DNA of 64,000 bases from a virus (lineage: Duplodnaviria; Heunggongvirae; Uroviricota; Caudoviricetes), in IMG/VR virus record IMGVR_UViG_3300006217_000016, positions 6,503 to 70,502 of that record; one strand, 5' to 3'. Positions 5,007-19,621 of the stretch are shown here, in pieces; within the stretch, counting starts at the first letter, position 1, and each line of letters begins with the position of its first letter. Both the position numbers and the translations under genes were made by a program. The notes beneath the pieces were generated by a model. That model was not told the DNA's origin, did no database searches, and saw nothing but the letters and a program-made list of their open reading frames with translations.

Positions 5007-5438
5007 TTATGTATATAGATGGTACTTTTTACTGATAGAGTGCGCTGTCTCATCTGGCAGAGGAGCAAACCAGATGCCGGTAAGAGTCGTCCCATCGTCT
5101 TCCTCTGGCGTCAGTTCTGTCAGACACTTATCATAAATCAGCCCGAACCCCACCCCTTCGACCAGACCAAGTTCCTCTGCAACGGTCTTCGCCTTCAACA
5201 GGTGACTTTTGTTTCTGGCCTCACAGATGGTCTTGACAAACGAGCCACAGACATAATCCTCAAAAATTTCCTTATCCACATGAACGGAGCAAGTAACAAA
5301 ATCCATTCCGTCATGTGTGATTTTTCGCCTGAGAAGATGCGTCCAATAGGCTTCAGCACAATGCGATACCTGTGCAGCCAGCTTGCCTGGAGACATGGCA
5401 AGGTCTTTTCGCATAATAAACAGACGTCTGTATCCCAT
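5007..5438 (-). CDS. PTH2-family peptidyl-tRNA hydrolase (archaeal/eukaryotic type)
   Basis: Motif MRKDLAMSPGKLAAQVSHCA is typical of the PTH2 N-terminus. Start taken at the ATG of MGYRR; the true start may be the internal MRKDL. Confidence 0.55.
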   Translation of the reverse strand: MGYRRLFIMRKDLAMSPGKLAAQVSHCAEAYWTHLLRRKITHDGMDFVTCSVHVDKEIFEDYVCGSFVKTICEARNKSHLLKAKTVAEELGLVEGVGFGLIYDKCLTELTPEEDDGTTLTGIWFAPLPDETAHSISKKYHLYT

Positions 5439-5447
5439 TGGCTTCAC

Positions 5448-5951
5448 CTAATTTCTTGATTTCTTGGAACTATGGATTTCTGTGACCTTACCGTTTGCAT
5501 AGTAAATCCTTGCGTCCGGCGTTGTCCAACCGTACTCGTCAGCAAGAAATTGCGCATATTCCTCAATATCAGCAAAACAAATGCTGCCAGTGGCATATAC
5601 ACTACGGTAGAAAATCTTATTCTCAAGCGCTGGCGCGCTGACAACCTGGAACTTTCCATAACGTTTGTTCCATTCTGCAATAGCACTGTCGCGGTCTTCG
5701 CTGCTGGCGCTCACACTGTACCCATTTGTGGCGAATTCCAGAAGATTGATTTCATCCGCATACGGAGTCCAGCGATCTCCGCAGCACGGACAATCAATTC
5801 CATCCGTAACGCCGTTCCAGTAGCATCCAAGATCTTCTGCCTTGGCGATTGCCTCCTCCTCGCTGTTCGCTTCGATGAACAACCGATGACAGACATTATC
5901 GTCCACAATGAACGAACCACCAGAGTTGTTCTGATCAAATTCATAAAACAC
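5448..5951 (-). CDS. Hypothetical protein
   Basis: 167-aa ORF; stop abuts the PTH2 start. Confidence 0.5.
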   Translation of the reverse strand: MFYEFDQNNSGGSFIVDDNVCHRLFIEANSEEEAIAKAEDLGCYWNGVTDGIDCPCCGDRWTPYADEINLLEFATNGYSVSASSEDRDSAIAEWNKRYGKFQVVSAPALENKIFYRSVYATGSICFADIEEYAQFLADEYGWTTPDARIYYANGKVTEIHSSKKSRN

Positions 5952-5962
5952 GATCTCACCTC

Positions 5963-6370
5963 TCAGTCATACCAGCACCGTACCCCATCATCACTGATAT
6001 CGAACTCATCAGCGAAACGGAACATCATAGCAAAGTCAATAATATCCTGCTGACTTGGCGCCGTTTTCTTCCCAACACCCTCAAAAGTAATTCTGAAATC
6101 GTTCCTGTCTGGGCCAATACAGTAACCGTGAACATACCATCCGTCTGTCTCCCGCTTGCGGAGAAACTCAATAATTTCTCCGGCAGTAGGGGAGTCATTC
6201 TGGGAGTCTCTCTTATCAATAACACCAACTTCCTCAAGCTGGTCGATTTGAGAAATCGTAAGTTCGTGGAAACGTCTCAGCCCGCCGCCATATTTCTCGG
6301 ATTTGTAGTCCTCACCAAAAACAATCTGGTCGCGCTGGTCGGCAAGGCTTAATCTGAAAATATCCAACAT
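5963..6370 (-). CDS. Hypothetical protein
   Basis: Start at MLDIF, preceded by AAGGAGG 8 nt upstream. Confidence 0.5.
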   Translation of the reverse strand: MLDIFRLSLADQRDQIVFGEDYKSEKYGGGLRRFHELTISQIDQLEEVGVIDKRDSQNDSPTAGEIIEFLRKRETDGWYVHGYCIGPDRNDFRITFEGVGKKTAPSQQDIIDFAMMFRFADEFDISDDGVRCWYD

Positions 6371-6383
6371 ATGTATGACCTCC

Positions 6384-6956
6384 TTAATACCACTCCCAGT
6401 AGACAAGCGCAGAAGTCTCACTTGGCGCCTCTACAAGAATGTTGTCTTCCGGGAATTCCTTATTGAAAGCCGCAATCTGCTGTTCGTTCAGCACATAGTA
6501 ACCTGTATTCTCAACGGGTTCCGGGATGTTTTTGTGGAACCAGTCTTGAATGTCGTACGCCTTACGCCAGTAACATACCTCATCCCGGTCGCACACATAG
6601 CAGGTTTCCTCGCGGTCAATGGTGTATTTGCTCTCAATCAGCTCATCTGGGATGGTCACATGTTCGCTCGCGCCGTTTTTCTTTCCATAGATGCTTGTGG
6701 CGGAGGAACCGTTGCTGTCGCAACTCCAACCTCCGATATGAGCATCTTCCAGCCCGTAGTCCTCTCCGATCTTCTTCAAATCGTAGTAATGGTTGACAAC
6801 TCGGACTTCCACGCAGTACGGTGCAAGCTGCCGGTACATTGGAGACACGATGTCCTCACTGCTAAGTACAATGCCATCAAGCTCATCTCTGTCATACACT
6901 TTCCCTTTGTCGATAGCCGGTTTTTGGATACGAAACACATTCATATCAAGTCCCAC
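6384..6956 (-). CDS. Hypothetical protein
   Basis: 190 aa. GTG start with GGGAGG 8 nt upstream. Confidence 0.5.
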   Translation of the reverse strand: MGLDMNVFRIQKPAIDKGKVYDRDELDGIVLSSEDIVSPMYRQLAPYCVEVRVVNHYYDLKKIGEDYGLEDAHIGGWSCDSNGSSATSIYGKKNGASEHVTIPDELIESKYTIDREETCYVCDRDEVCYWRKAYDIQDWFHKNIPEPVENTGYYVLNEQQIAAFNKEFPEDNILVEAPSETSALVYWEWY

Positions 6957-7521
6957 GATGATTCCTCCCTTTCGTATTTGTGCGAAAAAAATACCCGAAC
7001 CGCCATGGATTTGGTAGTCCGGGTGCTGTTTCTTATGTTCGGCTGTCTTGTTCAGAGTCAGGGTTTCCTAATTCATTTCAACCAATTTCTTTGCTCATAC
7101 GAGTAAAATTATCTGAAGAGGACGGGTACATCCTCATTATAGAATTGCGTTTTCAAGACGCAGCAATCAAAGATTTTAATTAGAACGGCGTATATGGAGG
7201 CGTGTATCGTGCTCCGCAATGTTCGAGTTGGTGAGTTTTCGAGTAGATGCTTAGAACGCCGTAACGATTTGCGTCAAAAAAAGTACGATGAACAGGTAAC
7301 GCCTACTTTCTTGATATGGATTATCAGTCCACATTTATATATTTCAAGTCCAGACCATTACCTTAAAATGGCGGAATCTTCCTGTTTTTGAAAGATTTCA
7401 TTTGAGTTCTATGGCGCACTCAATTCGCCCCGCAGCACTACACTTCGTCTGTGGCTGAAGCGGTTGAAATTTCATATTCCACTCTGACCCTGAACGAGAC
7501 AGCCGAATGGCTGTCTCATGT

Positions 7522-8160
7522 TTACTCCGCAGGGTGGGCTGCTTCGATAAACTGTGCTACGATATCCTCGAAGGAGTCGTTGACACTGTATTCGGGATCG
7601 TATTCGACAACCAGTTCCACCATCAGCTTGTCGATACTGGTGGAAACCTCGTCAGACTTTGCAACCATGGCACGGCTCGCGTCTCTGACCTTGTTCCGGT
7701 CAAAGTCGATGGTCGTAACCTGCTTGACATCGTAGTTGTACGGGACCTGATTGCCCTCGCCGTTGAACTTGTAGGCGGTTCCACGGATAACGCTCTCGGA
7801 GGGACGCGCCTTGCTCATGTCGGCAAGGACTCCAGCCACCTTTTGGCGAGTTCGATTATTGGCCAGTTCCGCGTCAATGTCGATATCGCTGGTACGCTTT
7901 GCTGCGCTGATGGCGGCCGTGAGCTTCTCCTTCTCCTTCATCAGATGCTCAAGGAAACTCACCAGTTGATTGTTGGTACAGTCGAACGGACGATCAACGA
8001 CCACCTCGACCGTCTCGTCCTCCGCCTCGTGATTTGCCTTCTTACGCAGATGCACCTGCGTCGTCTTTGTGATGTAGTTGCGGTTGCCCAGATACATTGT
8101 GGTGCGGTCAACCATCCGGCTCAGAAAATTCTGATACCGAAAAGCTTCTTTCAGATACAT
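7522..8160 (-). CDS. Hypothetical protein
   Basis: 212 aa. RBS AGAGGAGGAAT upstream. Confidence 0.5.
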   Translation of the reverse strand: MYLKEAFRYQNFLSRMVDRTTMYLGNRNYITKTTQVHLRKKANHEAEDETVEVVVDRPFDCTNNQLVSFLEHLMKEKEKLTAAISAAKRTSDIDIDAELANNRTRQKVAGVLADMSKARPSESVIRGTAYKFNGEGNQVPYNYDVKQVTTIDFDRNKVRDASRAMVAKSDEVSTSIDKLMVELVVEYDPEYSVNDSFEDIVAQFIEAAHPAE

Positions 8161-8164
8161 CCTT

Positions 8165-8485
8165 TTATTCCTCCTCTGTTGTTGGCTGATATAGACCCAT
8201 GCGGATCTCGCTCAACTTGTAATATTCAACCAGCCCGTTGTAGGACTGCACCCCGATTTCATCCGGGTCGGCAACGGTTTGGAAACCTACTAGGAAATCG
8301 CCGTTACCCAGAGGGACGCACTCAATAACGAAGCCATAGTTTGCGCTTGAATCCTCGAACATACTCTCATCCATGAAAGCCTGCTGCTGTTCATATGGCG
8401 TATACACCTTCCGGTACACCCAGAATCGAAAGATGTCGTTCTGGTGAGATCGAAAGAAATCAGATACGGACTGAAATTCAACCAT
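8165..8485 (-). CDS. Hypothetical protein
   Basis: 106 aa. RBS TTGGAGGA upstream. Confidence 0.5.
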   Translation of the reverse strand: MVEFQSVSDFFRSHQNDIFRFWVYRKVYTPYEQQQAFMDESMFEDSSANYGFVIECVPLGNGDFLVGFQTVADPDEIGVQSYNGLVEYYKLSEIRMGLYQPTTEEE

Positions 8486-8927
8486 CCTGCTCTATCCTCC
8501 AATCTTTGTACGGTTCCACGCAACGCCGCAGCTCTTCCTCTATGACCATCTGATGAAACCGCATCCATAAAGGCTCGTCGATATTCTTGTCTCCGTAACC
8601 ACCTCTATACTTTTGGTCGGTTATATCCTGGTCAAGCACGTAAAGCGTTTTCTTGGTCACATGTGGAAGGAAGGGAATGATGAAGTCGATCACAACACCA
8701 GGCATGTATGTCTGGCGGCCGATGGCATACCGAACAGCGCAGTTGAGAATGCAGCCAAAGTTATCATTGTCTGCCCTAATATGCGGAACCATTGGTTTCT
8801 TTGGTGTACTCACAGCTTTATCCCCGTCTGCTTTGGTTTTCGTGCGGCGAGTGCTTTCTGCACACGCTTCTCGCGTACTTCTGGGTTCCAACCGCACTTG
8901 TAGCAGGGTCGAAACTCCCCGGAGCAC
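8478..8927 (-). CDS. Hypothetical protein, start uncertain
   Basis: ORF has an alternative GTG start. An internal ATG at 8792 (MVPHIRADND) is an alternative. A 42-aa CxxC ORF in another frame overlaps the 5' part. Confidence 0.35.
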   Translation of the reverse strand: MLRGVSTLLQVRLEPRSTREACAESTRRTKTKADGDKAVSTPKKPMVPHIRADNDNFGCILNCAVRYAIGRQTYMPGVVIDFIIPFLPHVTKKTLYVLDQDITDQKYRGGYGDKNIDEPLWMRFHQMVIEEELRRCVEPYKDWRIEQDG

Positions 8928-8964
8928 TCAATCATCTTGTTATGTACGCAGTTATTTGATTCCT

Positions 8965-9294
8965 TCATTCATCTACCTCCTCAAACAAGATACAATCCCG
9001 GACAATTCTGCGTTCCCAACTGAGGTCATCAAATGTTGGCCATCTTTTCCAATCGTACTGATCCGTACAGTCGCCGGTTATGTCATAGATATGGCCATCA
9101 ATCCGGCATCCGAAATGGTTGACAGGAGCATCATAGACGATTGCTACATTAGCATCCCACTCATACTGCTTGAAACGTTCGTATAAAATCTTGGCGAACC
9201 AATAGCACGCTCCGCAAGTGAAGATTTTGATGACCTCCTGATACTTCCCGTCGTTGGTAAAGCGAGAAATAAAAGACAAGACCTTTTGTTCCAT
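8965..9294 (-). CDS. Hypothetical protein
   Basis: 109 aa. ATG overlaps the upstream stop (TGATG coupling). Confidence 0.5.
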   Translation of the reverse strand: MEQKVLSFISRFTNDGKYQEVIKIFTCGACYWFAKILYERFKQYEWDANVAIVYDAPVNHFGCRIDGHIYDITGDCTDQYDWKRWPTFDDLSWERRIVRDCILFEEVDE

Positions 9295-9776
9295 CAGAAG
9301 TGATAGTCAACAACGCCGCCCAAATAGTACGTCCCCAGCGGCTCTACCGTGCGCATCCACTGCTGCATTGTATACAGTTCATCTTCATTCCACACATAAA
9401 AGCCGAATTGATCACTGTACGATTTTTTCAGGTCGTACATAGCCGAGTCAAGGCCGCAACAGACGGTTGATTTTGCAACAAATTGATTGAAGTCAATTTT
9501 TGACAGAGCATCGACCGCCTTCTTAAACTTCTCAAAATATTCGTCAAAGTAGTCGCCAATATCAATTTTGAATGTGAGCGTATCGCCGTCTCTGGTACAC
9601 ACCCGGCCGAAACTCGTACTCATCAACCATTCAAGTTCTTCATTGCGGTTCTCGTCGCTAACATCGGAAACATAATCAGCGATGGAACCAGTGAACCACT
9701 CTGGAATAGAATCTGCGCAGATGCGGTCTTCTACATCGACTGGCAAGCTCTCAATTTGAAAAATTCTGCTGTGCAT
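9294..9776 (-). CDS. Hypothetical protein
   Basis: 160 aa. RBS AAGGGTGA upstream. Confidence 0.5.
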   Translation of the reverse strand: MHSRIFQIESLPVDVEDRICADSIPEWFTGSIADYVSDVSDENRNEELEWLMSTSFGRVCTRDGDTLTFKIDIGDYFDEYFEKFKKAVDALSKIDFNQFVAKSTVCCGLDSAMYDLKKSYSDQFGFYVWNEDELYTMQQWMRTVEPLGTYYLGGVVDYHF

Positions 9777-9780
9777 CGTA

Positions 9781-10701
9781 TCACCCTTGTTTCTTCAGAT
9801 ATTGGAACATTTCTGTAATATCGTTTGTAATATCGTGCCGGATGGAGCAACAGGAATTCTTTGCGAATTTCCCCTCGACAGCGTCGATATACATGGAGGC
9901 GGACGTGAACTCTCCATCCATACCGTCGTCCCCCATGTAGAATTCCTTCCACTGATCCTCCGACATCAGCCGCCTTACATCGAGCTGGCGAATAGCAAGA
10001 TTGTCAAAGCTGACTGCTTTGAAGAAGCCATGTTTCACAGCGTCACCCAATGCGTTATAGAGTGCAACCTTTTTAGCCGCGATGTCTTCGCCGTGCCGCT
10101 CCAAGTTGTCCTCGCCGCGCCGGAAATCTTTATACCCGAGAATCAGAATCTTCAGGTTGTGACCAGCCAGCGACCTGAACCCCTTCATCGAAATCATACC
10201 GTTGATGATGTGAATGACAGCATTGGGGTAATACTTAACCATCTCAATAAAGCTGTCTGTGTCTTCCGTCCAGTCCAGATAGGAGATACCAAGCCCATAA
10301 ATTAACCCATGCTCCGTCAGGTATCGGAGCATGGGAAGATTTTTCATGAAATGCGTTTTGTTAACCGTGATATTGGGAATCAGCTTCCGCTCTTTGAGTT
10401 GCTGTAGAAATGGAATCAAATCTGGATGGGCGAGCGGATTGCCGCCGCCAATAGCAAGCTCAGTATAGGGGCGGATAGAATCCAAGAATGGCAGATGCAG
10501 GATGTCTCCATGTCTGCCATCCGGTCTTGAGTCCTCGTGACACATAGCGCATCCCATATCACACTGGTTTGTGATCTTGATGTCAAACGACTCTGGGAAC
10601 TCAGGCTCAAAGAAATCCAGGTCGTTTTCACGAACCTTCGTTCCGTCGCTATAGATTCTCACACGGTAATTCCCGTTGGTGTACTCGCCTAAAATACTCA
10701 C
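9781..10701 (-). CDS. Radical SAM domain protein
   Basis: CxxxCxxC motif (CDMGCAMC) near the N-terminus. GTG start with GGGAGG 9 nt upstream. Confidence 0.6.
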   Translation of the reverse strand: MSILGEYTNGNYRVRIYSDGTKVRENDLDFFEPEFPESFDIKITNQCDMGCAMCHEDSRPDGRHGDILHLPFLDSIRPYTELAIGGGNPLAHPDLIPFLQQLKERKLIPNITVNKTHFMKNLPMLRYLTEHGLIYGLGISYLDWTEDTDSFIEMVKYYPNAVIHIINGMISMKGFRSLAGHNLKILILGYKDFRRGEDNLERHGEDIAAKKVALYNALGDAVKHGFFKAVSFDNLAIRQLDVRRLMSEDQWKEFYMGDDGMDGEFTSASMYIDAVEGKFAKNSCCSIRHDITNDITEMFQYLKKQG

Positions 10702-10719
10702 GAAGGTTCCTCCCTTATC

Positions 10720-11016
10720 TTATCCGTCTCTCCCGTACTCACCAAACGCGACCATCTTGTCTCCACTCGGCGTAGTGAAGTAGTGGGAGTATGATTCCAT
10801 AGAACCCCAGTCACTGTAACCCAAGTGTCGATGATCCTGATATCGGTATTCCTCAGATTCGAGGAGCAGCTTTGAATACGGAACGAGTTTGCCATCGAAG
10901 CAGTCATACATCAGTTCATCCTGCTTGAATTTCTCGTATTCTTCCTGCGTGCAGATAACGATGCTATGCGTGGAGCTGCTGTTTGTTTCAAACACTCCAC
11001 ATCTTACTTGTCTCAT
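10720..11016 (-). CDS. Small protein with N-terminal MRQVR-VFETNSSSTHS motif (paralog A)
   Basis: Start at the internal ATG, preceded by AAAGGAGAG. The first ~20 aa are shared with the gene at 15550..16068. Confidence 0.55.
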   Translation of the reverse strand: MRQVRCGVFETNSSSTHSIVICTQEEYEKFKQDELMYDCFDGKLVPYSKLLLESEEYRYQDHRHLGYSDWGSMESYSHYFTTPSGDKMVAFGEYGRDG

Positions 11017-11038
11017 ACGCTCTCCTTTTTGATTGCGA

Positions 11039-11803
11039 TTAAAACTCACATTTTATAGGCCGCGATGTCACATTCTGAAAGAATGGCATCGGCAGGAGCT
11101 TGTGCAGGTTACGCTCGTTCATGGTCTTGATTTTACTGTCAAGCGAAGGATCTCCTGTTGTACCGACCATGATGTACTTGTCGAGCTGCGCATAGGTAAA
11201 ACCGAGATTGTCCTCGTCACTTTTGCCACACAGGCCGTCAGACGGCGTTTTGTCCACCAGTTCACGCGGAATGGGCAATTCGTACCCGATTTGCAGGACT
11301 TCACTCACCAGGAGACTGGCAAGAGGACTGAAATCTCCCGCACTGTCCCCAAACTTTGTGGAATATCCCACATAATCCTCTGAGCCATTACATGTGTTGG
11401 CTACCCGTCCGCCGTTCGGAAGCGACTGCGCAACCGCATACAGTGTTGCCATGCGGATGCGAGCTGGCAGATTTACCTTCGACTGCTCCGTTACAGGCAT
11501 ATAACCGCGAATTTCCAAAGTCAGACGCTCAATCGCTCCTCCGATATTGATAGTGCAGTGCTCAATGCCAAGCGTCTCCACTACCTTTCGGCTGTCCTTG
11601 ATGTCGTGCTGGACACCATTTGGCATCAAAACACCAAATACGCGGTCTTTGCCGAGCGCCTCAACGCACAGGGCGGCGACAATCGAGCTGTCTTTCCCGC
11701 CAGAAATTCCGACAACCGCACTGCACTCCGGGCCGTTTTCCTGAAAATAATCACGAATCCACTGAACGATTGCGTCTTTTGTGTGTTTTGGGTTTGGAAG
11801 CAT
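11039..11803 (-). CDS. nadE: NH3-dependent NAD+ synthetase
   Basis: PP-loop SGGKDS and overall NadE-like sequence. RBS GAGGGG upstream. Confidence 0.8.
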   Translation of the reverse strand: MLPNPKHTKDAIVQWIRDYFQENGPECSAVVGISGGKDSSIVAALCVEALGKDRVFGVLMPNGVQHDIKDSRKVVETLGIEHCTINIGGAIERLTLEIRGYMPVTEQSKVNLPARIRMATLYAVAQSLPNGGRVANTCNGSEDYVGYSTKFGDSAGDFSPLASLLVSEVLQIGYELPIPRELVDKTPSDGLCGKSDEDNLGFTYAQLDKYIMVGTTGDPSLDSKIKTMNERNLHKLLPMPFFQNVTSRPIKCEF

Positions 11804-11806
11804 AAA

Positions 11807-12246
11807 TTACCCCTCTTTTCTCCATAGTTCTACCGTGTATTGCTGGCCAAGAATCTTCTCAATGATTCCGAACACAACACCCCAGTTGCCTCCACCAAGA
11901 CCACATCCAATCTTGTATGGCATTGCAATCGTCTCGCCAGCAGGAACGATCTGTTTTAATTGGAGTAGACACTTTTCAAAAGCTGCATAGTCTGTGTACT
12001 GCCTTCCGTTATAACCGTACTGGTCTTGAGAAAACAGATTGCAAACAACCTGGGGATCAATATTCTTGCCATCAACAGGTGTGCGCCCTCATCGCACCTG
12101 ACCTTATACCATTTGTAAACTGTGGGGAATTTTGTCCTTATCTGCTTTGCGACGCCGCTTCCCATTTTCCCTTGGCAGTTCACTTGGTGGCAAATATAAT
12201 TTGATTTTGTAGAGAACAGGTCTCCATCAATTATTTTGATAGACAT
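11807..12246 (-). pseudogene. Macro-domain (ADP-ribose binding/processing) gene interrupted by a -1 frameshift near 12078-12081
   Basis: The N-terminal part (GDLFSTKSNYICHQVNCQGKMGSGVAKQIR...YKWYKVRCDEGAH) is in one frame. The C-terminal macro core (VDGKNIDPQVVCNLFSQDQYGYNGRQYTDYAAFEKC...AMPYKIGCGLGGGNWGVVFGIIEKIL...) continues in the -1 frame and stops at 11807-11809, just before the nadE ATG. The 5' ATG overlaps the NAMPT stop (ATGA). Confidence 0.6.
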
Positions 12247-13772
12247 CAAAATTCCCCTCCATGGAGATTCTGCCGAACCTCATCCAAGGTATAAATTTTG
12301 ATGAACTCCCCATTCTTGAAGACCACCCGTAATTCATTGTTCTCTTGAGCCTCAGCCCAAGTTAGGCCATCCTTATAGATGTAGTTATCACCGTTTTTGA
12401 TCACACGGCAGCAACCCCGCTGAGACTTCTTGAAGTGACCAGTGTCGGTCTTGGGATTCTTGAAAATCATGATGGGCTTGCCGTCTGCATCCTCGGCATA
12501 GGTGGCCTTAACGGCGATACCAAAGGTGTCACGGGTGTATGGTGCGTATGTCTTATTGACAACAGAGATACCGGAAACGGGATTGGGTTCACTTCGTTCC
12601 AAAGTCTCCAAGCACTGCATGGAGAAGGAACCGACGCCAAGGGAGACATTGTTAATGGCAAACCCGTTGGATTCCAGAATCTGATAGATTTGCTTGCATC
12701 GCTGGGGAGTAATGCTGTCACCATACAACGCCTTGACGTGCGGATTCAGCACTTTGAACCCCTTGCTGTTCACGGTGCCTCCAAAAATGTCCCACAGCTT
12801 GAACGCAGTCTTGGTCACGACCTCGACGGGGTCTCCACTGTCTCCACGGATAAGCAGACATCCATCGTGTGCCAGAATCTCGTCTTTGAGCTGCGGCAGG
12901 ATGTTGTCTACCAGATTCCAGTAATCGTAGCTGTCACTGACCATGGAGAAGTTCTGGTGAGGGTAAATCTCGGTCAGCAGACGGCGGATATGGGTGACCT
13001 CGTCACCGTCCATAGCGAAGTTGGAACACATCACGCTGTGTTCGGTGGACAAAGCGCCATAGGCTACCGGCTCCTTAGCACAGTCGCAGTGATAGTTGTC
13101 CTCCAGCCACAGGATTGCGGGAACAGTGGCGGTGTTCAGGAAGCTGAGACAGAAAGCGGCAGAACTTTTGGTGGCGCTCTCCACGCTCTCTTGACCACGC
13201 ATGGAAAAATCGCCAAGGAGTCTGGCGCGGACCACGCTGTCATCACAGGTGCGATCTGTAAACTCGTTGACGATTTGGCGGTAGCGATAGCCGACCTCGG
13301 CGGAAACTTGGGTGTGCCACATGGTGCAGGACAGCATGGTCTCAATGGAGTTCACCAGCCACACAAAGTTCGGATGGGTGTTGGAAATCTCAATTTGCGG
13401 CACCTTGATATTGGTACGCACACCCTCCGGCACGGCCCGAATCTCTAGGGGAAGATAGCCCAAGTCATGAAGAGCTTTCAGGCGCTTTTCTCCAACACCA
13501 TCGGTGTTGATGGTGGCGTTGAGAACCCGCTTATACTCGCTGAGGACATCCTCCCAGTCCTCTTGGAAGAAAAAGTGGTTGAAGGCATCAACGAGGTACT
13601 CCTTGATGAACGCCTGGAGGCCAAACATCGTGACCTTATCTGTGTCTCCCAGCCGGGTCATGCGGGGAGTGTAGTAGGAGACCATCTTGGTCAGGGTCTG
13701 CGGATACTGCTCTGCGTGGGCCGTCTTGTAAAAGTCCAGGCAAAGCAGTGGATTGTAGCAACAACCACTCAT
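12246..13772 (-). CDS. nadV: Nicotinamide phosphoribosyltransferase (NAMPT/NadV family). A NARP1-type Namat (NAMPT/PncB homolog) cannot be excluded.
   Basis: The N-terminus aligns well with NAMPT (DFYKTAHAEQYP vs DSYKVTHYKQYP). The C-terminal VFKNGEFIKIYTLDEVRQN also matches. Confidence 0.75.
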   Translation of the reverse strand: MSGCCYNPLLCLDFYKTAHAEQYPQTLTKMVSYYTPRMTRLGDTDKVTMFGLQAFIKEYLVDAFNHFFFQEDWEDVLSEYKRVLNATINTDGVGEKRLKALHDLGYLPLEIRAVPEGVRTNIKVPQIEISNTHPNFVWLVNSIETMLSCTMWHTQVSAEVGYRYRQIVNEFTDRTCDDSVVRARLLGDFSMRGQESVESATKSSAAFCLSFLNTATVPAILWLEDNYHCDCAKEPVAYGALSTEHSVMCSNFAMDGDEVTHIRRLLTEIYPHQNFSMVSDSYDYWNLVDNILPQLKDEILAHDGCLLIRGDSGDPVEVVTKTAFKLWDIFGGTVNSKGFKVLNPHVKALYGDSITPQRCKQIYQILESNGFAINNVSLGVGSFSMQCLETLERSEPNPVSGISVVNKTYAPYTRDTFGIAVKATYAEDADGKPIMIFKNPKTDTGHFKKSQRGCCRVIKNGDNYIYKDGLTWAEAQENNELRVVFKNGEFIKIYTLDEVRQNLHGGEF

Positions 13773-13993
13773 TTCTCATCATCCTCACTTTCAACTTTCT
13801 TTCCCGCATAGTAGATTGCAAATGCAAGAGGAGCCACGATAAACCACAAAGCCATGATCCATATTGGTAGATAGTGCATATCTTCCAGGTCGCTATAGCT
13901 GTTCTTTTTATACATCAGGTAGTAGTAAAAACCGCCAAGAGAAGAACCAATCAGAATGTAAGTGATAACAATTAAAACGATTAGAAACAGCAT
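13769..13993 (-). CDS. Small membrane protein
   Basis: 74 aa with two TM helices. RBS GAGGTGA upstream. ATGA overlap with the NAMPT start. Confidence 0.5.
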   Translation of the reverse strand: MLFLIVLIVITYILIGSSLGGFYYYLMYKKNSYSDLEDMHYLPIWIMALWFIVAPLAFAIYYAGKKVESEDDEK

Positions 13994-14002
13994 ATTGTCA
14001 CC

Positions 14003-14170
14003 TCAATAGTGAATTTTCTGGACATAACCACACTTTTTGCAACGGTATATTTCTGTGTATCCAATAGGCATATCCTGTGGAGCCCACTCAGAATAGTTGG
14101 TTACTCTCGTGATATGTTCCCACTCATGTTTGCAAAACAGCGAGCGGATATAGTTGATAAGCCATCTCAT
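14003..14170 (-). CDS. Small zinc-ribbon-like protein (MRWLINYIRSLFCKHEW...CKKCGYVQKIHY)
   Basis: 55-aa ORF not in the track (under 60 aa). RBS GGAGGTG upstream. Fills the gap between the prs-like and membrane protein genes. Confidence 0.35.
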   Translation of the reverse strand: MRWLINYIRSLFCKHEWEHITRVTNYSEWAPQDMPIGYTEIYRCKKCGYVQKIHY

Positions 14171-14186
14171 CGCGCACCTCCTATGA

Positions 14187-14987
14187 CTACTCTAATACAG
14201 CCACTTTCTCATGTTCACCACGATAGATGCTGTTTGTTGTAAATACTCGTGAAATCTGGCCATCTGTCAACACGGAGCCCTTGAAGATGGTGCTCTCACA
14301 ATGGGACACATACAGAAAAATTTCCTTTGCACCAGCTTCTTTCAGGGCAGCAGCAGTATGGGTAAACGTACCGCCACGGGAGCAAATGTCGTCCACAATA
14401 AGAACATTTCGACCGGCGACCTTCTCACTGTTGGCGAGTTCAAGCCCTTCAATTTTGCCAGTGCGCCAGTCACGGTGCTTGATACCGAACACATACTCCC
14501 GGCCCATCAGGTCGGAGTACCGCTTGGCAGCGCCCTCGTCCGGGTAGCACATCAGAACATCAGTATCGCCTGTATCAGCCATGACACGCTCAATAGCCAG
14601 ACGGATATTGTCCGCAGGCTCCTTCACGCAGATGCGGTCGATAAGCGCTGCCGCCACATTGGAATGTGGATCAAGCACTTCAACCTTACGAAAGTTGAGA
14701 GTGTTAATGAACTCGGCGAACCATTTCAGGGTGAACACCTCGTCGCCGCTCTTGACCCTGTCCATACGAGCATTGGGAATGTACGGCAAAACGAGCTCAA
14801 TATCCACACCCATCCGATTGTTCGCCCGAATGTGATGCACCAAATGCCACAGGAGCATACACTCGTGGTCGCCATCATACCGCCACTCAATACGGAACCA
14901 GACAGCGTCTTTGGTATCAAGGCGGAAGGATGTGGTCCCGTCTGGGAACTGCGTAAAGTTAACAGGGGTTCTGTTCACCAGAATCAT
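14187..14987 (-). CDS. Short ribose-phosphate pyrophosphokinase (Prs)-like enzyme; PRPP synthetase or ADP-ribose pyrophosphokinase (Adps-like)
   Basis: N-terminal Prs domain (FPDGTTSF...PYIPNARMDR). PRTase-type motif VLIVDDICSRGGT. 266 aa, shorter than canonical Prs. Confidence 0.7.
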   Translation of the reverse strand: MILVNRTPVNFTQFPDGTTSFRLDTKDAVWFRIEWRYDGDHECMLLWHLVHHIRANNRMGVDIELVLPYIPNARMDRVKSGDEVFTLKWFAEFINTLNFRKVEVLDPHSNVAAALIDRICVKEPADNIRLAIERVMADTGDTDVLMCYPDEGAAKRYSDLMGREYVFGIKHRDWRTGKIEGLELANSEKVAGRNVLIVDDICSRGGTFTHTAAALKEAGAKEIFLYVSHCESTIFKGSVLTDGQISRVFTTNSIYRGEHEKVAVLE

Positions 14988-14990
14988 GTC

Positions 14991-15539
14991 TTACTCCTCC
15001 CAGTTCTCAATGTTGATTTGACACATCTTCATGGCCTTGAGGGCATTTTCGTGGCTCTCTGGTGTCACGCCAGCGCAGCAAGCGGCATCCACCGTAATTT
15101 TGACTTCCGGCAAAAACGCTTTAAGCAGCAGCGCGTTGGAAATGACACAGATATCGGTGCAGAGGCCGACCAGGACAATCTCGTCAATATGGCTCGACAC
15201 GCTGTTTTTAATGCGCAGGTACTCGCCAAGTTCAATAGAGCCAAACGTTTTCTTTCTGAAAGTAGAAGTCCACTCCTCCTTGTCTACGATTGCATTGAAA
15301 AGCACATCAGGGGCGCACCAGCCCTCGGTCTTATCAATGCAGTGCTCAACGGGGAGCATCTTCCCTTCCTGCGTCTCCAGATAGTCCTTATCGTGGGTAT
15401 CAAAGGTTGCAAGGATCTCGCCGTCAAACTCTTCGGCTTTCGCAACAACCTTCGGCAGAATCGCCTGCGCCTCTTTGGTGCCAAGAGACCCATCAATGAA
15501 ATCGTTTTGCATATCAACAATGACCAATACCTTACTCAT
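14991..15539 (-). CDS. pncA: Nicotinamidase/isochorismatase-family hydrolase (PncA-like)
   Basis: VLVIVDMQNDF and GLCTDICV motifs. Start at the internal ATG with AGGAGG upstream. Confidence 0.7.
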   Translation of the reverse strand: MSKVLVIVDMQNDFIDGSLGTKEAQAILPKVVAKAEEFDGEILATFDTHDKDYLETQEGKMLPVEHCIDKTEGWCAPDVLFNAIVDKEEWTSTFRKKTFGSIELGEYLRIKNSVSSHIDEIVLVGLCTDICVISNALLLKAFLPEVKITVDAACCAGVTPESHENALKAMKMCQINIENWEE

Positions 15540-15549
15540 ATGTACCTCC

Positions 15550-16068
15550 TTAGTTCCCCTTGTAGTAAAATTCGTGCCGGTAATCGACATGGAAATTTTC
15601 CACGCGATCATCGTCAATTTCATCACTTGTTGTTAAAACAACGCTTTTATCGGAGAATAAATAACGGAGCAGCCGCCCGCTGCTCCGAAGTATTCCGTCC
15701 ACGAACCTCAGATGATCGTCCTCACCAGCATGATCGACAAAAGCATTAACGCAATAAACGCCGCTTCCATATCTGTGATAGGTGGCCTTTTCAAACTCAC
15801 ATTGAACACCAACTTTCATCAGTTCTTCCATAATCCATGTCTTTGCGTTCTCTGCCTTTTTCATTTCATAAAGCGACAGGATACTGGAGTATAAATACGC
15901 AGCCTTATCCTCGACTGACCGCAGTTCAGCAGGCTCTCGGCCAAAATCGTCACATCGAAAATACACCTTTTCTGGATATTCTAGTTCAGCCTTCCTGTCC
16001 GTCACAATACAAATACAGTGGGTGCTGCTGGAATTGGTCTCAAACACCGAATTTCGTACTTGCCGCAT
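15550..16068 (-). CDS. Protein with N-terminal MRQVR-VFETNSSSTHC motif (paralog B)
   Basis: Start at the internal ATG, preceded by AAGGAGA. Shares its N-terminal 20 aa with 10720..11016. Confidence 0.55.
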   Translation of the reverse strand: MRQVRNSVFETNSSSTHCICIVTDRKAELEYPEKVYFRCDDFGREPAELRSVEDKAAYLYSSILSLYEMKKAENAKTWIMEELMKVGVQCEFEKATYHRYGSGVYCVNAFVDHAGEDDHLRFVDGILRSSGRLLRYLFSDKSVVLTTSDEIDDDRVENFHVDYRHEFYYKGN

Positions 16069-16240
16069 TGGTTTTCTCCTTAAACTGATATGTTGTTCGT
16101 TCTGTAATCCGTCATTACAGATGTCCAGGTGAGATGTGACTGGACATCTGAATGATGCCAAAGGACTCGCGAGCGGCGCGACTTCGTCGGCGTCAGCCGA
16201 CCTCGTCGCGCTCGCGCAGCGAGGAAACAAACAAATCCAT

Positions 16241-16262
16241 ACTCCGATTAACAATACGGAGT
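16241..16262. repeat. Conserved hairpin repeat, copy A2 (ACTCCG-ATTAACAATA-CGGAGT)
   Basis: Stem carries compensatory changes relative to the other copies. Confidence 0.6.
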
Positions 16263-16449
16263 GCCCGCTTTATGTATTGATTGGTTATAACAGGCGATAT
16301 ACATTACAGAACTGTCGGAATTTTCTTTTTGCAGCCTTGAAGAAGTGACGCCGATGATCCAAGATCCGGGAGGATCGCCCGCGATCCGTACGGATCTTTG
16401 ATCATTCGGAGGAACTTCTTTGAGCGTGTGAACGGTTACCCTTGCGTTT

Positions 16450-16469
16450 CTCTGATTCACAATACAGAG
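16450..16469. repeat. Conserved hairpin repeat, copy A1 (CTCTG-ATTCACAATA-CAGAG)
   Basis: Lies about 45 nt after the stop of the 16516..17130 gene. Confidence 0.6.
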
Positions 16470-16515
16470 TGCCCTATGTACGCAGACTGTGGGCTAATAC
16501 GCTGCAAAATGATTA

Positions 16516-17130
16516 TTACTCCTGGAACCTGTAGTCAACTCTCTCCCAGTTCCCAGGTCTTAGATATGTGATATAGATTTTGTCAAACGCCCAAGAACCG
16601 ACATCTCCCATGCCAGCCTCTCCGCGATAATCTCCGCCTCCCATGCCATTCCCGATGCAAGTGAGAAGCGGAAGCGGGTTGATACACCACACGCCAGACA
16701 TCCCGTATCTGTCGCGGACGGAGTTCCGCCTTATGTATTCCTCTATGTCGATGTAGCACTTTTTCGTTGCATTCACCAGATAGCACCCGGCGCTGTCGAG
16801 ATCGAGCTTATATTGTGGCGTTTCCGGTGAGATATCCTGAACGCTTCTGTATTCACCCCACACGCCGTTATACTTTTCAAGGAAGGCTTCAACACTTGTG
16901 ATATATCCATCACCAAAGTTGCATCCATCCTCCACTGCATCGGTGGCATAGTCTCCCATCCATGCGATACGGGCCGGTCTGTCCTCGATTTCATGCAGCA
17001 CCGCGTTAACAAAGTTATTGCCGATCCATGAGTGCTCCATCAGCTTGAGCCCATTGTCAAATGCGTGAGAATACGCAGACCGTTCCTCTCCGTCTTCAAA
17101 AATCATCAGCGGTCTATAATACTGTCCCAT
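16516..17130 (-). CDS. Hypothetical protein
   Basis: 204 aa. ATGA overlap with the upstream gene. Confidence 0.5.
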   Translation of the reverse strand: MGQYYRPLMIFEDGEERSAYSHAFDNGLKLMEHSWIGNNFVNAVLHEIEDRPARIAWMGDYATDAVEDGCNFGDGYITSVEAFLEKYNGVWGEYRSVQDISPETPQYKLDLDSAGCYLVNATKKCYIDIEEYIRRNSVRDRYGMSGVWCINPLPLLTCIGNGMGGGDYRGEAGMGDVGSWAFDKIYITYLRPGNWERVDYRFQE

Positions 17131-17570
17131 CAGCTCGCCCTCCCAAGCACAGCTATAAAGCTGTCCGTTTCAATATCCTCCTCGATGTCAGCAGGCGCAA
17201 ACCAGTCGTCGGCATCTTCATCGGTGTCTTCTTCAATATCGTCTTCGACATTTTCTTCTTCTTCATCCCACGCTTCGTTTTCGTCCATATGCCGGAGGAC
17301 TTCGTTCTTGTAGTCGTCAAATGAATAATCTGCGTCCTCATATCCGCCATATCCATCCTCGCGGTAGTAATCGCAACGAGTCGGAATGTTCGCCAGAAGG
17401 CCACGGATTTCTTCCCAGTCACGCATATTGCCGATTGTTTCCAGCAGGATTTCATTGAGGTATTCTGCATCATAAACATCGTTGCAGAGATCATCAATTC
17501 CCTCATCAACACAGAAACTGATTAGGTCGCCGAATGAGTTTACACCTTCGATAAATTCCTGACGTGTCAT
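17130..17570 (-). CDS. Acidic small protein P1 of the C-terminal-tail family (ends DSFIAVLGRAS)
   Basis: 146 aa. RBS AAAGGGG upstream. Lies immediately downstream of the tRNA cluster. Confidence 0.5.
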   Translation of the reverse strand: MTRQEFIEGVNSFGDLISFCVDEGIDDLCNDVYDAEYLNEILLETIGNMRDWEEIRGLLANIPTRCDYYREDGYGGYEDADYSFDDYKNEVLRHMDENEAWDEEEENVEDDIEEDTDEDADDWFAPADIEEDIETDSFIAVLGRAS

Positions 17571-17594
17571 GAAGAAGACCCCTTTCTGTTGAAT

Positions 17595-17669
17595 TGGTGA
17601 CCCGGACGGGAGTCGAACCCGCGTTACCAGAGTGAAGGTCTGGTGTCTTAACCGCTTGACTACCGGGCC
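17595..17669 (-). tRNA. tRNA, probably Glu (UUC) with an unusual C33
   Basis: Clean cloverleaf. Acceptor GGCCCGG/CCGGGTC, T-loop TTCGACT, CCA encoded. Anticodon loop CCUUCAC. Confidence 0.6.
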
Positions 17670-17672
17670 GTA

Positions 17673-17748
17673 TGGTCTGAGTGGGGAGGATCGAACTCCC
17701 GGCCTCGTGATCCCAAATCACGCGCTCTGCCAACTGAGCTACACCCAG
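17673..17748 (-). tRNA. tRNA-Pro (UGG)
   Basis: Acceptor CTGGGTG/CACTCAG with C1-G72. D-arm GCTCAGTTGGCAGAGC. Anticodon loop TTTGGGA. CCA encoded. Confidence 0.75.
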
Positions 17749-17851
17749 ATATTGTGCGGGCGGGGATTTTCACCCCGCATAGGTAAGATTATGTACCTGC
17801 TACCGAGCTTGTCGCCCATCGGCTACTTCACCGAACCCAAACAGGAGGACA

Positions 17852-17930
17852 ACGATGGACTCGAACCATTGTCTTACCCTACCTCTCGTTATAGCGTCTA
17901 CCTATTCCGCCACCGCACATTTTGTATTGT
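17852..17930 (-). tRNA. Degenerate tRNA-like remnant (T-loop GGTTCGAGTCC; no consistent acceptor or anticodon arm)
   Basis: T-arm-like sequence found, but hand-folding failed. Adjacent GCGGGG-ATTTTCA-CCCCGC hairpin at 17764-17782. Confidence 0.2.
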
Positions 17931-18039
17931 GTAGCTCTAAAAACAGGACTCCCGCAGGCGAGCGTCCCTGTAAACCTGCTACACTCGGTTTTGAGCGTGC
18001 CCATCCCGCAGGGCGGCGGGGTGCTCCGTGTACTTTGGA

Positions 18040-18074
18040 GCAAAGAAAAAGATCGTGCCGAGAACTACGGCACG
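18040..18074 (-). terminator. Rho-independent terminator just 3' of tRNA-Gly
   Basis: Hairpin CGTGCCG-AGAACTA-CGGCACG followed by a U-run on the minus strand. Confidence 0.55.
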
Positions 18075-18075
18075 C

Positions 18076-18151
18076 TGGAGTGAGAGACGGGACTTGAACC
18101 CGCAGCTTCCGACTTGGAAGGACGGCACTCTGCCAGTTGAGTTACTCCCAC
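18076..18151 (-). tRNA. tRNA-Gly (UCC)
   Basis: Acceptor GTGGGAG/CTCTCAC. D-stem ACTC/GAGT. Anticodon loop CTTCCAA. T-arm GCGGGTTCAAGTCCCGT. CCA encoded. Confidence 0.75.
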
Positions 18152-18154
18152 AGA

Positions 18155-18573
18155 TGGTGGAGCCGGCGGGAATCGAACCCGCGTCCGAAATTCCTACATG
18201 AGCAAGACCTTTTTACGCAATAGGTTTCCTTTTAGGTGGATGCCTTATGGCGGGGCACCAAGATGGAATCCAAATCTACCCCAGGGCGTACCAGTTAAGT
18301 ACACCTCCACCACCTTGTCTTTTTGAACAGATTACAAGGAAAACTGTTTTTCTGGCGTATCCTCGACCGCAGGTACTTACCCAGCCAGAGGTGTACCGTT
18401 TTGGAATCCTGCCGACAGTTAAGCGGCGACCCTCTCTGCCATGAAGGCGGCGAAAGCGGGATGGATCATAACAACACTCATATCATTGTCATTTCATTTT
18501 TTGTTTAGCCTTAAGGCGGTCTCTACCTGCGAATCTTACTCTCTCAGAACCCCGTCGAAACCTTTACGGCCCC
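18155..18573 (-). ncRNA. ssrA: tmRNA (SsrA), about 419 nt
   Basis: 5' end GGGGCCGUAAAGGUUUCGACGGGG and 3' end AUGUAGGAAUUUCGGACGCGGGUUCGAUUCCCGCCGGCUCCACCA are near-identical to bacterial tmRNA termini. An internal frame ends ...AFAAFMAERVAA-UAA (stop near 18419-18421), consistent with a degradation tag. Confidence 0.8.
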
Positions 18574-18603
18574 GTAAAAGAGGCCCGGCGTATAGCCGGG
18601 CCG
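18574..18603 (-). terminator. Hairpin GGCCCGGC-GTATA-GCCGGGCC plus U-run immediately 5' of tmRNA (terminator-like or processing element)
   Basis: Perfect 8-bp stem followed by UCUUUU on the minus strand. Confidence 0.4.
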
Positions 18604-18677
18604 TTCCCCACATTGTTATAGACCGCATGGGTGCGCTGTCTTATTAAATACCATGTTTGCACGTTCCCCTTTCGGGG

Positions 18678-18753
18678 TGGAGCTGGTAACAGGAGTCGAA
18701 CCCGCGACACTCGGAGTACAAAACCGATGCTCTACCAACTGAGCTATACCAGC
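18678..18753 (-). tRNA. tRNA-Thr (UGU)
   Basis: Acceptor GCTGGTA/TACCAGC. D-arm GCTCAGTTGGTAGAGC. Anticodon loop TTTGTAC. CCA encoded. Confidence 0.75.
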
Positions 18754-18756
18754 AAA

Positions 18757-18832
18757 TGGAGCTGATGCACGGACTCGAACCGCGAACCTAAGCTTTACGA
18801 AAGCCTCGCTCTGCCATTAGAGCTACATCAGC
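18757..18832 (-). tRNA. tRNA-Thr (CGU)
   Basis: Acceptor GCTGATG/CATCAGC. Anticodon loop TTCGTAA. T-loop TTCGAGT. CCA encoded. Confidence 0.7.
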
Positions 18833-18836
18833 ATGT

Positions 18837-18911
18837 TGGCTGGGGTGACTGGATTCGAACCAGCGAATGAGGGAGTCAAAGTCCCTTGCCTTGCCGCTTG
18901 GCGACACCCCA
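18837..18911 (-). tRNA. tRNA-Gln (UUG)
   Basis: U1-A72 acceptor (TGGGGTG/CACCCCA). Anticodon loop CTTTGAC. T-loop TTCGAAT. CCA encoded. Confidence 0.7.
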
Positions 18912-18946: not shown

Positions 18947-19621
18947 CTATACAAGCATTACCTTATTGTATAAGGCAATGAATTGATCATTCATAATTTT
19001 GTCGATATGGTAGTGTCCAAAATACCAACGTTTGAACTGAAGGTCAACCATAATACGCTCCAGATAGCTTACGAGCGGATCATTTTCATACCAATCTGCA
19101 ATCATGGTCTGAATGCTTCTTGGCGCACAGTGCGTTAACACATAATCAACAGACCATCCGTTGTTATCAAGCGCGTTGATCCCCCGTTCCATCTCTTCCA
19201 TAGATGGCATTTCGTCTTTCCACCAAGAAATATGTTCTGTACGATATTCTTTGTCATGAGATCTTGCACCGCCCATCACAAAGAACCTTTGCCCGTCGAT
19301 GGTCAGAACTTGTCCTCTCTCCAGATGGTAAATATTTGGCGCTATTTCTCGGACTTTACCACCGAACTTATCTTGAAGCGAAAATTTGCGGAGGATATCA
19401 AAATTCTCATGGTTCCCATCGATCCAGAGCGTGGTGAAGTTTTTACCCGCGAGCCATTTTTTCCACCATATCTCTCGTGTAGAACCGTCCCATATGAGCC
19501 CAAAATCCCCACAGACAATTAAATAATCCTTCTTAGTGAGCGATTTTTGCATCGGGAAGTTCTTGACAGACAACTTTTTTATGTCAATGTCCGCATGAGT
19601 ATCCCCTGTCACATAGATCAT
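18947..19621 (-). CDS. Calcineurin-like metallophosphoesterase
   Basis: Motifs VTGDTHAD, VCGDFG, GNHENF. Confidence 0.7.
   Translation of the reverse strand: MIYVTGDTHADIDIKKLSVKNFPMQKSLTKKDYLIVCGDFGLIWDGSTREIWWKKWLAGKNFTTLWIDGNHENFDILRKFSLQDKFGGKVREIAPNIYHLERGQVLTIDGQRFFVMGGARSHDKEYRTEHISWWKDEMPSMEEMERGINALDNNGWSVDYVLTHCAPRSIQTMIADWYENDPLVSYLERIMVDLQFKRWYFGHYHIDKIMNDQFIALYNKVMLV

Follow-up and report, generated by a model that had tools for sequence, protein, structure and literature searches.

A 64-kb stretch of DNA from a tailed phage (Duplodnaviria; Heunggongvirae; Uroviricota; Caudoviricetes), comprising positions 6,503 to 70,502 of IMG/VR record IMGVR_UViG_3300006217_000016 and referred to here at its full length as the window, carries a complete transfer-messenger RNA (tmRNA, ssrA) gene within a cluster of tRNA genes and, 12.7 kb further downstream, a gene for a PTH2-type peptidyl-tRNA hydrolase. 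The element is a temperate SPbeta-like siphophage of 134–150 kb and its hosts are gut Clostridia (Oscillospiraceae-type). A prediction made from the letters of the sequence had joined the tmRNA, the hydrolase and the phage tRNAs into a single translation-rescue toolkit; the individual genes were confirmed, and the tmRNA and PTH2 are described below as two separate genes that probably help to maintain translation during infection.

tmRNA gene

The tmRNA was located with ARAGORN and with the Rfam covariance model RF00023, which gave identical coordinates (18155–18573, minus strand) for a one-piece RNA of 419 nt with an encoded CCA, in agreement with the length and canonical termini that had been predicted. 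The Rfam model was matched over positions 1–374 of 374 with a score of 96.1 bits against a gathering threshold of 47 (E = 3.2e-36). The acceptor stem consists of 7 bp, in which the 5′ sequence GGGGCCG pairs with the 3′ sequence CGGCUCC, and it includes a G3:U70 pair, the identity element of alanyl-tRNA synthetase (AlaRS).

The gene lies inside the tRNA cluster (17595–18911), as had also been predicted. In the direction of transcription the order is tRNA-Gln(UUG) (18837–18911), tRNA-Thr(CGU) (18757–18832), tRNA-Thr(UGU) (18678–18753), tmRNA, tRNA-Gly(UCC) (18076–18151), tRNA-Pro(UGG) (17673–17748) and tRNA-Glu(UUC) (17595–17669), all on the minus strand and all called by both ARAGORN and the Rfam tRNA model. 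The trio upstream of the tmRNA scores 57.8–64.8 bits with the Rfam tRNA model and is found in the same order in contigs L014 and L016.

Pattern searches of IMG/VR and metagenome contigs yielded six relatives (L016, L014, L042, L053, L060 and L062), which together with the window form a long-type tmRNA family of seven sequences, 417–427 nt in length. The relatives score 90.6–97.9 bits with the Rfam model, and some of them are on viral contigs of up to 138 kb; the contigs of the family as a whole, viral or metagenomic, reach 141 kb. The T arm (GCGGG/CCCGC), the encoded CCA and the acceptor pairing of positions 1–7 with 420–426, including G3:U, are invariant in the family. In an RNAalifold consensus of the seven sequences the acceptor stem, the T arm and a long helix 2 were kept, with 12 pairs changed on both sides. 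Every family member has its tmRNA embedded in a tRNA array, of six tRNAs in the window and L016, seven in L014 and 18 in L042, L060 and L062. ARAGORN missed five of the seven tmRNAs (L014, L042, L053, L060 and L062, with Rfam scores of 90–94 bits) and misread the tag in the other two; phage tmRNA censuses made with ARAGORN only will therefore undercount the family. A 24-mer from the tag insertion recovered a single metagenome contig, L016, and an exact 25-mer from the tag/helix 5 region had no match in IMG/VR.

At least four independent assemblies contain the gene in identical form. It is flanked on either side by more than 18 kb of phage DNA and lies 23 kb from the integrase gene. A pattern combining the 5′ end with pseudoknot 1 (PK1) was absent from 185,579 species (one genome each), so that no host donor can be named. 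This absence and the identity across assemblies argue for a resident phage gene rather than a recently captured host ssrA or an attP fragment. A search of 50,697 phage records for full-length relatives found none, the only matches being 35–45-nt 3′ fragments of ssrA from enterobacterial prophages.

An SmpB-like open reading frame (ORF) was not found in the window by tblastn with E. coli and B. subtilis SmpB as queries (best E = 1.2), nor was SmpB found in the 10-kb flanks on either side; the search took in all but about 60 kb of the phage genome. A host partner would therefore be needed.

The spacer between tRNA-Thr(UGU) and the tmRNA (18574–18677, minus strand) contains a promoter-like element (AAGACA-16-TATAAC) followed by a GC-rich hairpin and a U-run, and this arrangement is conserved in L014. 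The U-run ends 8 nt before the tmRNA 5′ end and a terminator-like match covers 18602–18582. The same promoter–hairpin block is present at 1700–1780 of L014, where a tRNA-Ser(GCU) gene is inserted between the hairpin and the tmRNA. The terminator-like structure lies between the promoter-like element and the RNA genes.

Tag reading frame

The tag reading frame was assigned by comparison of the seven tmRNAs, an approach that the original prediction had proposed. On this comparative evidence the real tag is taken to be encoded by a 24-codon ORF at 18493–18419 (minus strand; gene positions 81–155), which reads AAU GAC AAU GAU … GUC GCC GCU UAA and replaces the frame reported by ARAGORN. The encoded peptide is NDNDMSVVMIHPAFAAFMAERVAA in the window and L016, NNNTETITMIHPAFAAFVAERVAA in L014, NDNSETVVMIHPAFAAFVAERVAA in L042 and NDNTETVIMIHPAFAAFMAERIAA in L053, L060 and L062; written with the charged alanine, the tag of the window is (A)NDNDMSVVMIHPAFAAFMAERVAA. 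All end in [VI]-A-A-stop, a C-terminus that resembles the usual kind of ssrA ending.

The 75 nt of this ORF are free of gaps in all seven sequences, while elsewhere indels are common and 161 of the 430 alignment columns are variable. Variable columns within the tag number 7, 5 and 13 at codon positions 1, 2 and 3, respectively, and 2, 0 and 8 in a 16-codon core; nine codon columns show synonymous variation only. The stop is conserved in place as TAA or TGA, the UAA of the window (18421–18419) being situated within a small hairpin. The start of the tag aligns with that of the tag DNDYFENYLAA given by ARAGORN for the short-type phage tmRNAs of L015 and L050 (gene position 84–85) and with the A-N-D-D tags of other tmRNAs on viral contigs. 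The resume codon is probably either AAU (18493) or GAC (18490). Tags of 10–11 codons are found in the short-type relatives and in a tmRNA of bacterial type that shares the 5′ end, so that the phage tag is about twice the usual length; the extra segment, MIHPAFAAF[MV]AER, is strictly conserved across the long-type family.

Two other frames were considered. The tag reported by ARAGORN, AVEDTPEKQFSL* (18332–18370, minus strand; gene positions 204–242), was rejected: a 1-nt insertion frameshifts it in L016, which is 99% identical and gives a different and longer peptide, and among the relatives the region measures 39, 40 or 41 nt, contains indels and lacks a conserved stop. A short frame reading MTMI* in the window is open in the relatives too but is variable in length and has no A-A ending, and was not favoured.

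Peptidyl-tRNA hydrolase

The ORF at 5007–5438 (minus strand) encodes 143 residues from its ATG, or 146 from a GTG at 5447, and is assigned as a real PTH2 by its profile match, its predicted fold and its motifs, with hydrolysis of peptidyl-tRNA as the predicted activity. The Pfam profile PF01981 was matched over positions 4–115 of 115 with 47.5 bits against a cut-off of 23 (E = 2.4e-12), and public gene calls likewise give 143 residues and PF01981. The sequence matches archaeal Pth2 and human Bit1 chains. An AlphaFold (AF2) model was obtained with a predicted local distance difference test score (pLDDT) of 89.1 and a predicted template-modelling score (pTM) of 0.83. When this model was compared with the PDB using Foldseek, ranks 1–13 were all Pth2 structures (3erj, 1q7s, 1wn2, 1rlk, 2zv3, 1xty, 1rzw) with a probability of 1.00, and the target template-modelling (TM) scores of the Pth2 crystal structures were 0.76–0.84. 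The assignment and the fold that had been proposed for this protein were thus borne out.

In an alignment of 37 homologues K19 is invariant in the motif S-P-G-K-L-A-A-Q, as are D103, C105, T107 and E108 in I-Y-D-K-C-L-T-E. These two motifs align with G-K-[LI]-A-A-Q and D-x-G-x-T-[EQ] of 1wn2, 1rlk and 3erj. Fromant and co-workers reportedly found in 2005 that K18 and D86 are catalytic in Pth2 from S. solfataricus, and by analogy with this Sulfolobus enzyme we take K19 and D103 to be the catalytic Lys and Asp of the phage enzyme.

A collection of 5.8 billion proteins contained 1,567 homologues with identities of 39–92%, and all of the 120 homologues listed carry PF01981. The protein also matches PHROG family 1866, which is labelled ‘unknown function’; tblastn found no PTH2 match in deposited phage genomes. 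The description of PTH2 as normally archaeal or eukaryotic, given in the original prediction, is half the story: gut metagenomes and prophages of Clostridia hold more than 1,500 members of this subfamily.

A longer variant of about 190 residues with 41% identity is encoded on L039 (10001–10567) and L040 (2559–3125), both binned to Methanobrevibacter metagenome-assembled genomes (MAGs), and also on the viral contigs L009 and L010 of 107–161 kb. The contigs with the longer variant may be archaeal viruses or binning errors.

Relationship between the tmRNA and PTH2 genes

The 12.7 kb that separate PTH2 from the tmRNA, on the same strand, hold about 20 ORFs. When 30 PTH2 loci were compared, the gene itself was retained with 39–73% identity and essentially none of its neighbours in the window were found nearby. 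More than 1,500 homologues combined with an unconserved neighbourhood point to selection on PTH2 itself, and the comparison indicates that it is an independently selected, mobile and widely spread accessory gene. In the related loci a search of the 10-kb flanks of PTH2, made with ARAGORN on all 30 and with Rfam on six, gave no tmRNA; flanks of this size would miss the 12.7-kb spacing seen in the window. Four of these loci (L036, L005, L007 and L024) have tRNA genes in the 10-kb flanks. The proposal of a single linked toolkit is thus not supported by the spacing, by the unconserved neighbourhood of PTH2 or by the loci of its relatives. No further gene for translation or tRNA repair (RtcB, CCA-adding enzyme, ArfB or release factors) was detected when about 40 neighbouring ORFs, those between PTH2 and the tmRNA among them, were scanned against Pfam and PHROG.

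On L036, a contig binned to Acetatifactor, the PTH2 homologue (10001–10435) is located between tRNA-His and tRNA-Trp in an array of 34 tRNAs (5142–10930).

A block of genes for NAD+ salvage or reconstitution lies between PTH2 and the tmRNA (11039–15626, minus strand). It comprises NAD synthase (11039–11803), a NAMPT/NAPRTase-like ORF (12246–13772), a PRPS-like ORF (14187–14987) and an isochorismatase/nicotinamidase-like ORF (14991–15626), and L014 is syntenic with the window through these genes. The PRPS-like and NAMPT-like ORFs are close to each other and resemble, as a gene pair, the NARP1 pathway of phage anti-defence (Adps and Namat, with specificity for ADP-ribose pyrophosphate, ADPR-PP).

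Proposed mechanism

The best explanation, which we regard as probable, is that the tmRNA and PTH2 are two independent genes of a long leftward accessory region that maintain translation during infection, together with the phage tRNAs. The tmRNA would be co-transcribed and processed with the tRNAs and charged with alanine by the host AlaRS through G3:U70. Host SmpB and EF-Tu would bring it to ribosomes stalled on truncated mRNAs, where translation would resume on the 24-codon frame (AAU or GAC … UAA) and the ribosome would be released. The nascent chain would gain a tag of 24–25 residues with a C-terminal V-A-A like that of the usual ssrA degron. PTH2 would hydrolyse peptidyl-tRNA, and possibly N-acyl-aminoacyl-tRNA, off the ribosome or on the split 50S subunit and so return tRNA to the pool. 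The 12 phage tRNAs, the tmRNA and PTH2 would in this way sustain translation when mRNA decay and overload give rise to stalled complexes. A presumed role of phage tmRNAs has been discussed previously (PMC9004378, PMC7162821, PMC4131195). In Firmicutes PTH2 might also act on intermediates of ribosome-associated quality control (RQC), because in B. subtilis bacterial Pth is described as freeing Ala-tailed nascent chains in the course of RQC (Svetlov et al., as cited in PMC11317155).

Several observations weigh against this account. The linkage between the tmRNA and PTH2 is weak, the two sharing only a genome and an accessory region. In the Rfam alignment the central part of the tmRNA has low posterior probability, which bears on the pseudoknots PK1–PK4 expected around the ORF. 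RNAalifold, which cannot model pseudoknots, shows two small hairpins at the expected place of PK1; it also shows several internal helices with compensatory changes. A terminator-like hairpin stands directly 5′ of the tmRNA. Neither of the candidate resume codons is GCN, and in the column of the canonical GCA resume codon the window, L042 and L053 have an in-frame UGA and L014 has UUA, so that the exact start of the tag is uncertain. The coding signal is partly confounded by structure, because several of the synonymous C/U changes in the tag keep a G:U or G:C pair and thereby leave a predicted hairpin intact. In PTH2 an invariant Cys occupies the position of the Gly of canonical Pth2 (D-x-G-x-T), and about 25 residues are inserted after the second helix.

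Alternative explanations

The alternatives are given in order of decreasing probability. A dedicated role in counter-defence, with host immunity as the selective agent, overlaps with the explanation above and is considered unlikely as an account in its own right. According to it, ribosomes that stall once defence RNases, among them mRNA interferases, have cleaved mRNA or tRNA would be freed by the tmRNA. N-acetyl or other blocking groups placed on aminoacyl-tRNA by GNAT-type toxins would be removed by PTH2, and phage tRNAs would stand in for those of the host that anticodon nucleases cleave. The adaptation to tRNA-targeting or translation-stalling defences suggested in the original prediction falls under this reading and is plausible. 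The accessory region also contains the NARP1-like NAD+ block, and a gene for Lar-type restriction alleviation is located just outside the window; nearness to anti-defence genes is, however, circumstantial, and neither a defence system nor a toxin target was identified. The mobility and strong conservation of PTH2 as an accessory gene would fit this reading. Bacterial Pth detoxifies TacT-acetylated tRNA (PMC4942678, PMC9241777) and phage tRNAs can evade tRNA-targeting defences (PMC10264068), but a link between phage Pth and anti-defence was not found in the literature searched.

Codon compensation, in which the tRNAs and indirectly the rescue genes offset a mismatch between phage codons and the host tRNA pool, is rather improbable. 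It is the classical explanation of phage tRNA arrays, relatives carry 18–34 tRNAs and the phage, with about 50% GC, may differ from its hosts in composition. The codon usage of 63 phage ORFs gives a third-position GC content (GC3) of 0.64, with GGA at 16%, CAA at 21%, UUA at 3% and UUG at 14%. The phage tRNAs mostly have U34 and match the minority A-ending codons, and tRNA-Leu(UAA) is present although UUA makes up 3% of Leu codons; tRNAs with U34 are, moreover, general decoders and not rare-codon specialists. The codon mismatch suggested in the original prediction thus receives no support from the phage's own usage, which covers the phage side alone and is not decisive.

A further reading, to which we assign a low probability, is that the tmRNA does not simply duplicate the host function: the phage would write its own degron or signal, with PTH2 as a second, independent arm acting on peptidyl-tRNA or toxin-modified aminoacyl-tRNA, as a counter-measure to translation-targeting immunity in gut Clostridia. 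Rescued chains might be rerouted, or tagging might be tuned relative to tag-less release. The double length of the tag, its conserved, phage-specific middle segment and its non-Ala start directly after an in-frame UGA in the canonical resume position are what suggests this reading.

Lower still is the probability that the tmRNA serves phage regulation or host takeover and not generic rescue, through a phage-specific fate of tagged proteins, the sensing of stalled ribosomes for the lysis–lysogeny decision or competition with the host tmRNA for SmpB. Roles of this kind have been put forward for phage tmRNAs (PMC7162821, PMC9004378), and titration of SmpB has been suggested for a phage tmRNA that consists of the tRNA-like domain (TLD) only (PMC4131195). 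The phage described here is temperate, and its tag of about twice the usual length, with a strictly conserved MIHPAFAAF[MV]AER segment where short-type tags have 10–11 codons, would fit a special function. The ordinary hydrophobic-A-A ending of the tag is nevertheless kept, which makes normal proteolysis the simplest reading, and a dedicated adaptor or protease is not indicated by the sequence. Long tags also exist in some bacteria.

Finally, a functionless host ssrA or attP-type fragment acquired by imprecise excision or misassembly is very improbable and largely refuted: many temperate phages do integrate into ssrA and carry its 3′ end, and the matches in phage records are only such 3′ fragments, but the gene described here is full length and deep inside phage DNA far from the integrase, recurs unchanged in independent assemblies, shows compensatory changes and an intact tag ORF in seven contigs and has a 5′-end plus PK1 pattern absent from the species searched.

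Comparison with known systems

Phage tmRNAs have been reported in 402 of 18,146 sequenced phage genomes, or ∼2.3% (PMC9004378). Complete genes are known from Bxz1-group mycobacteriophages and Bacillus phage G (PMC4131195) and from huge phages, where they occur together with SmpB (PMC7162821). As in the window, Bxz1 and other cluster C1 phages, phage G and the huge phages have a complete ssrA among many tRNA genes and presumably rely on the cell's own rescue machinery. The phage described here differs from them in being an SPbeta-like temperate siphophage of gut Clostridia, in the length of its RNA (417–427 nt in the family) and in its tag, which has 24 codons and starts with Asn or Asp instead of Ala.

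A combination of tRNAs, tmRNA and Pth has likewise been described. The genome of the jumbo Sinorhizobium phage AP-J-162 holds 66 tRNA genes along with genes for a tmRNA and peptidyl-tRNA hydrolases (PMC11242549), and a Pth is also known from phage CBB (PMC5259590). The jumbo phages share the same three ingredients per genome, read as translation support and compared here at the level of the ‘Pth’ label; they are lytic myophages of 350–470 kb infecting Proteobacteria, in contrast to a temperate phage of about 140 kb in Firmicutes. The finding is thus well supported but fairly ordinary, the combination being known from other large phages. What sets the present case apart is its phage lineage and host group, a long tag that does not begin with Ala and is mis-annotated by software, and the large unannotated PTH2 subfamily.

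Archaeal and eukaryotic Pth2 (1wn2, 3erj, 1xty and human Bit1, 1q7s) have the same fold as the phage PTH2, with a target TM-score of about 0.8, and share with it the motifs R-x-D-L-x-x-x-x-G-K-[LI]-A-A-Q-V-x-H and D-x-x-x-T-[EQ]. The phage enzyme has 19–28% identity to them and is set apart by the insertion of about 25 residues, by the Cys in place of the Gly of D-A-G-x-T and by being encoded in phages and prophages of Clostridia.

These results extend ribosome-rescue genes to abundant, uncultured temperate SPbeta-like phages of gut Clostridia. They correct the software-reported tag frame for a long-type tmRNA family, most of whose members ARAGORN misses, and they provide a functional label (PTH2 fold with intact catalytic motifs) for a family of phage proteins that has more than 1,500 members and is listed as ‘unknown function’. 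If PTH2 or the tmRNA does counter translation-targeting defences, both are small, handy and testable candidates.

Phage context

The assignment of the DNA to a phage, made in the original prediction, agrees with the SPbeta-type terminase, capsid and tail genes of the window. The 624-residue protein encoded at 50439–52313 aligns across 90% of its length, at 43% identity, with the terminase YonF of SPbeta, and in the virion module the capsid and tail genes match the Pfam families YonB, YonD_N, YomW, YomV, YomU and YomN, the structural block being syntenic. Terminase, capsid and tail families and a similar genome size are thus common to Bacillus phage SPbeta and the phage described here. SPbeta itself is not known to have a tmRNA or a tRNA array.

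PHROG families are matched along the entire window and include a tyrosine integrase (41188–42021). The genes of the window recur on metagenomic contigs of 134–150 kb. The capsid protein was found unchanged in 328 blocks of an assembly collection, and the one sample that is named resembles a pig-gut metagenome. Relatives bearing PTH2 are found in MAGs and one isolate of Clostridia (Dysosmobacter, Angelakisella, Oscillospiraceae and Ruminococcaceae), and some of them lie within bacterial contigs of 256–581 kb and are therefore prophages. The integrase and the prophage copies identify the phage as temperate. At the DNA level the locus has no relatives among the 50,697 deposited phage records in either near or distant searches, and the neighbouring proteins encoded at 18947–19621 and 16516–17130 gave no relatives when used as probes of IMG/VR.

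Other tRNA genes and minor features

In all, 12 tRNA genes were identified in the window by ARAGORN, each matched by the Rfam tRNA model. The predicted figure of at least 12 therefore holds for the 64 kb as a whole but not for the span 5007–18911 to which it had been assigned, where there are six; the other six, one of them aberrant, are located between 28.8 and 49.2 kb. They are tRNA-Leu(CAA) and tRNA-Leu(UAA) (28837–29012, minus strand), tRNA-Ala(UGC) with the aberrant class-II tRNA (31268–31434, minus strand), tRNA-Ile(GAU) (36042–36116, minus strand) and tRNA-Met(CAU) (49115–49188, plus strand).

The tRNA-Met(CAU) gene is solitary and lies on the plus strand, surrounded by replication and structural genes. 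Its product has a C1:A72 mismatch, a hallmark of bacterial initiator tRNA, and would be initiator-like by this feature, although the bottom of the anticodon stem has only two G-C pairs.

The aberrant tRNA (31349–31434, minus strand) is 86 nt in length and scores 46 bits with the Rfam model. It has an 8-nt anticodon loop, AUACAUGC (‘acat’ in the ARAGORN output), and a long variable arm, and its CCA is not encoded. The variable and T arms are 93% identical to those of tRNA-Tyr(GUA) from L060 and L062, while the acceptor, D and anticodon arms differ. This tRNA may be a four-base decoder or a decayed tRNA.

Between tRNA-Gly and tRNA-Pro the spacer (17749–18075, minus strand) measures 327 nt, compared with 24 nt in L014, and opens with a terminator-like hairpin. 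Its last ∼175 nt resemble a class-II tRNA, in which UGUGCGG pairs with CCGCACA as an acceptor stem and both a T arm and a D arm like that of tRNA-Leu are recognizable, but about 110 nt take the place of the anticodon and variable arms of this broken tRNA-Leu-like element. An intron-containing tRNA was considered for the spacer and rejected: the intron mode of ARAGORN gave no calls at normal thresholds and implausible ones when these were lowered, and there was no Rfam match.

A ROOL RNA (RF03087, 294–379 bits) adjoins the tmRNA within the tRNA arrays of L053 (9400–9988), L060 (2520–3108), L062 (904–1492), L050 (4478–5073) and L042 (4853–5307); the window has no Rfam match to ROOL at the gathering threshold. 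The ORF at 21644–22783 (minus strand) encodes a reverse transcriptase-like protein of 379 residues that matches PHROG 2825 (‘polymerase’) and PHROG 1423 (‘reverse transcriptase’), and is possibly part of a diversity-generating retroelement.

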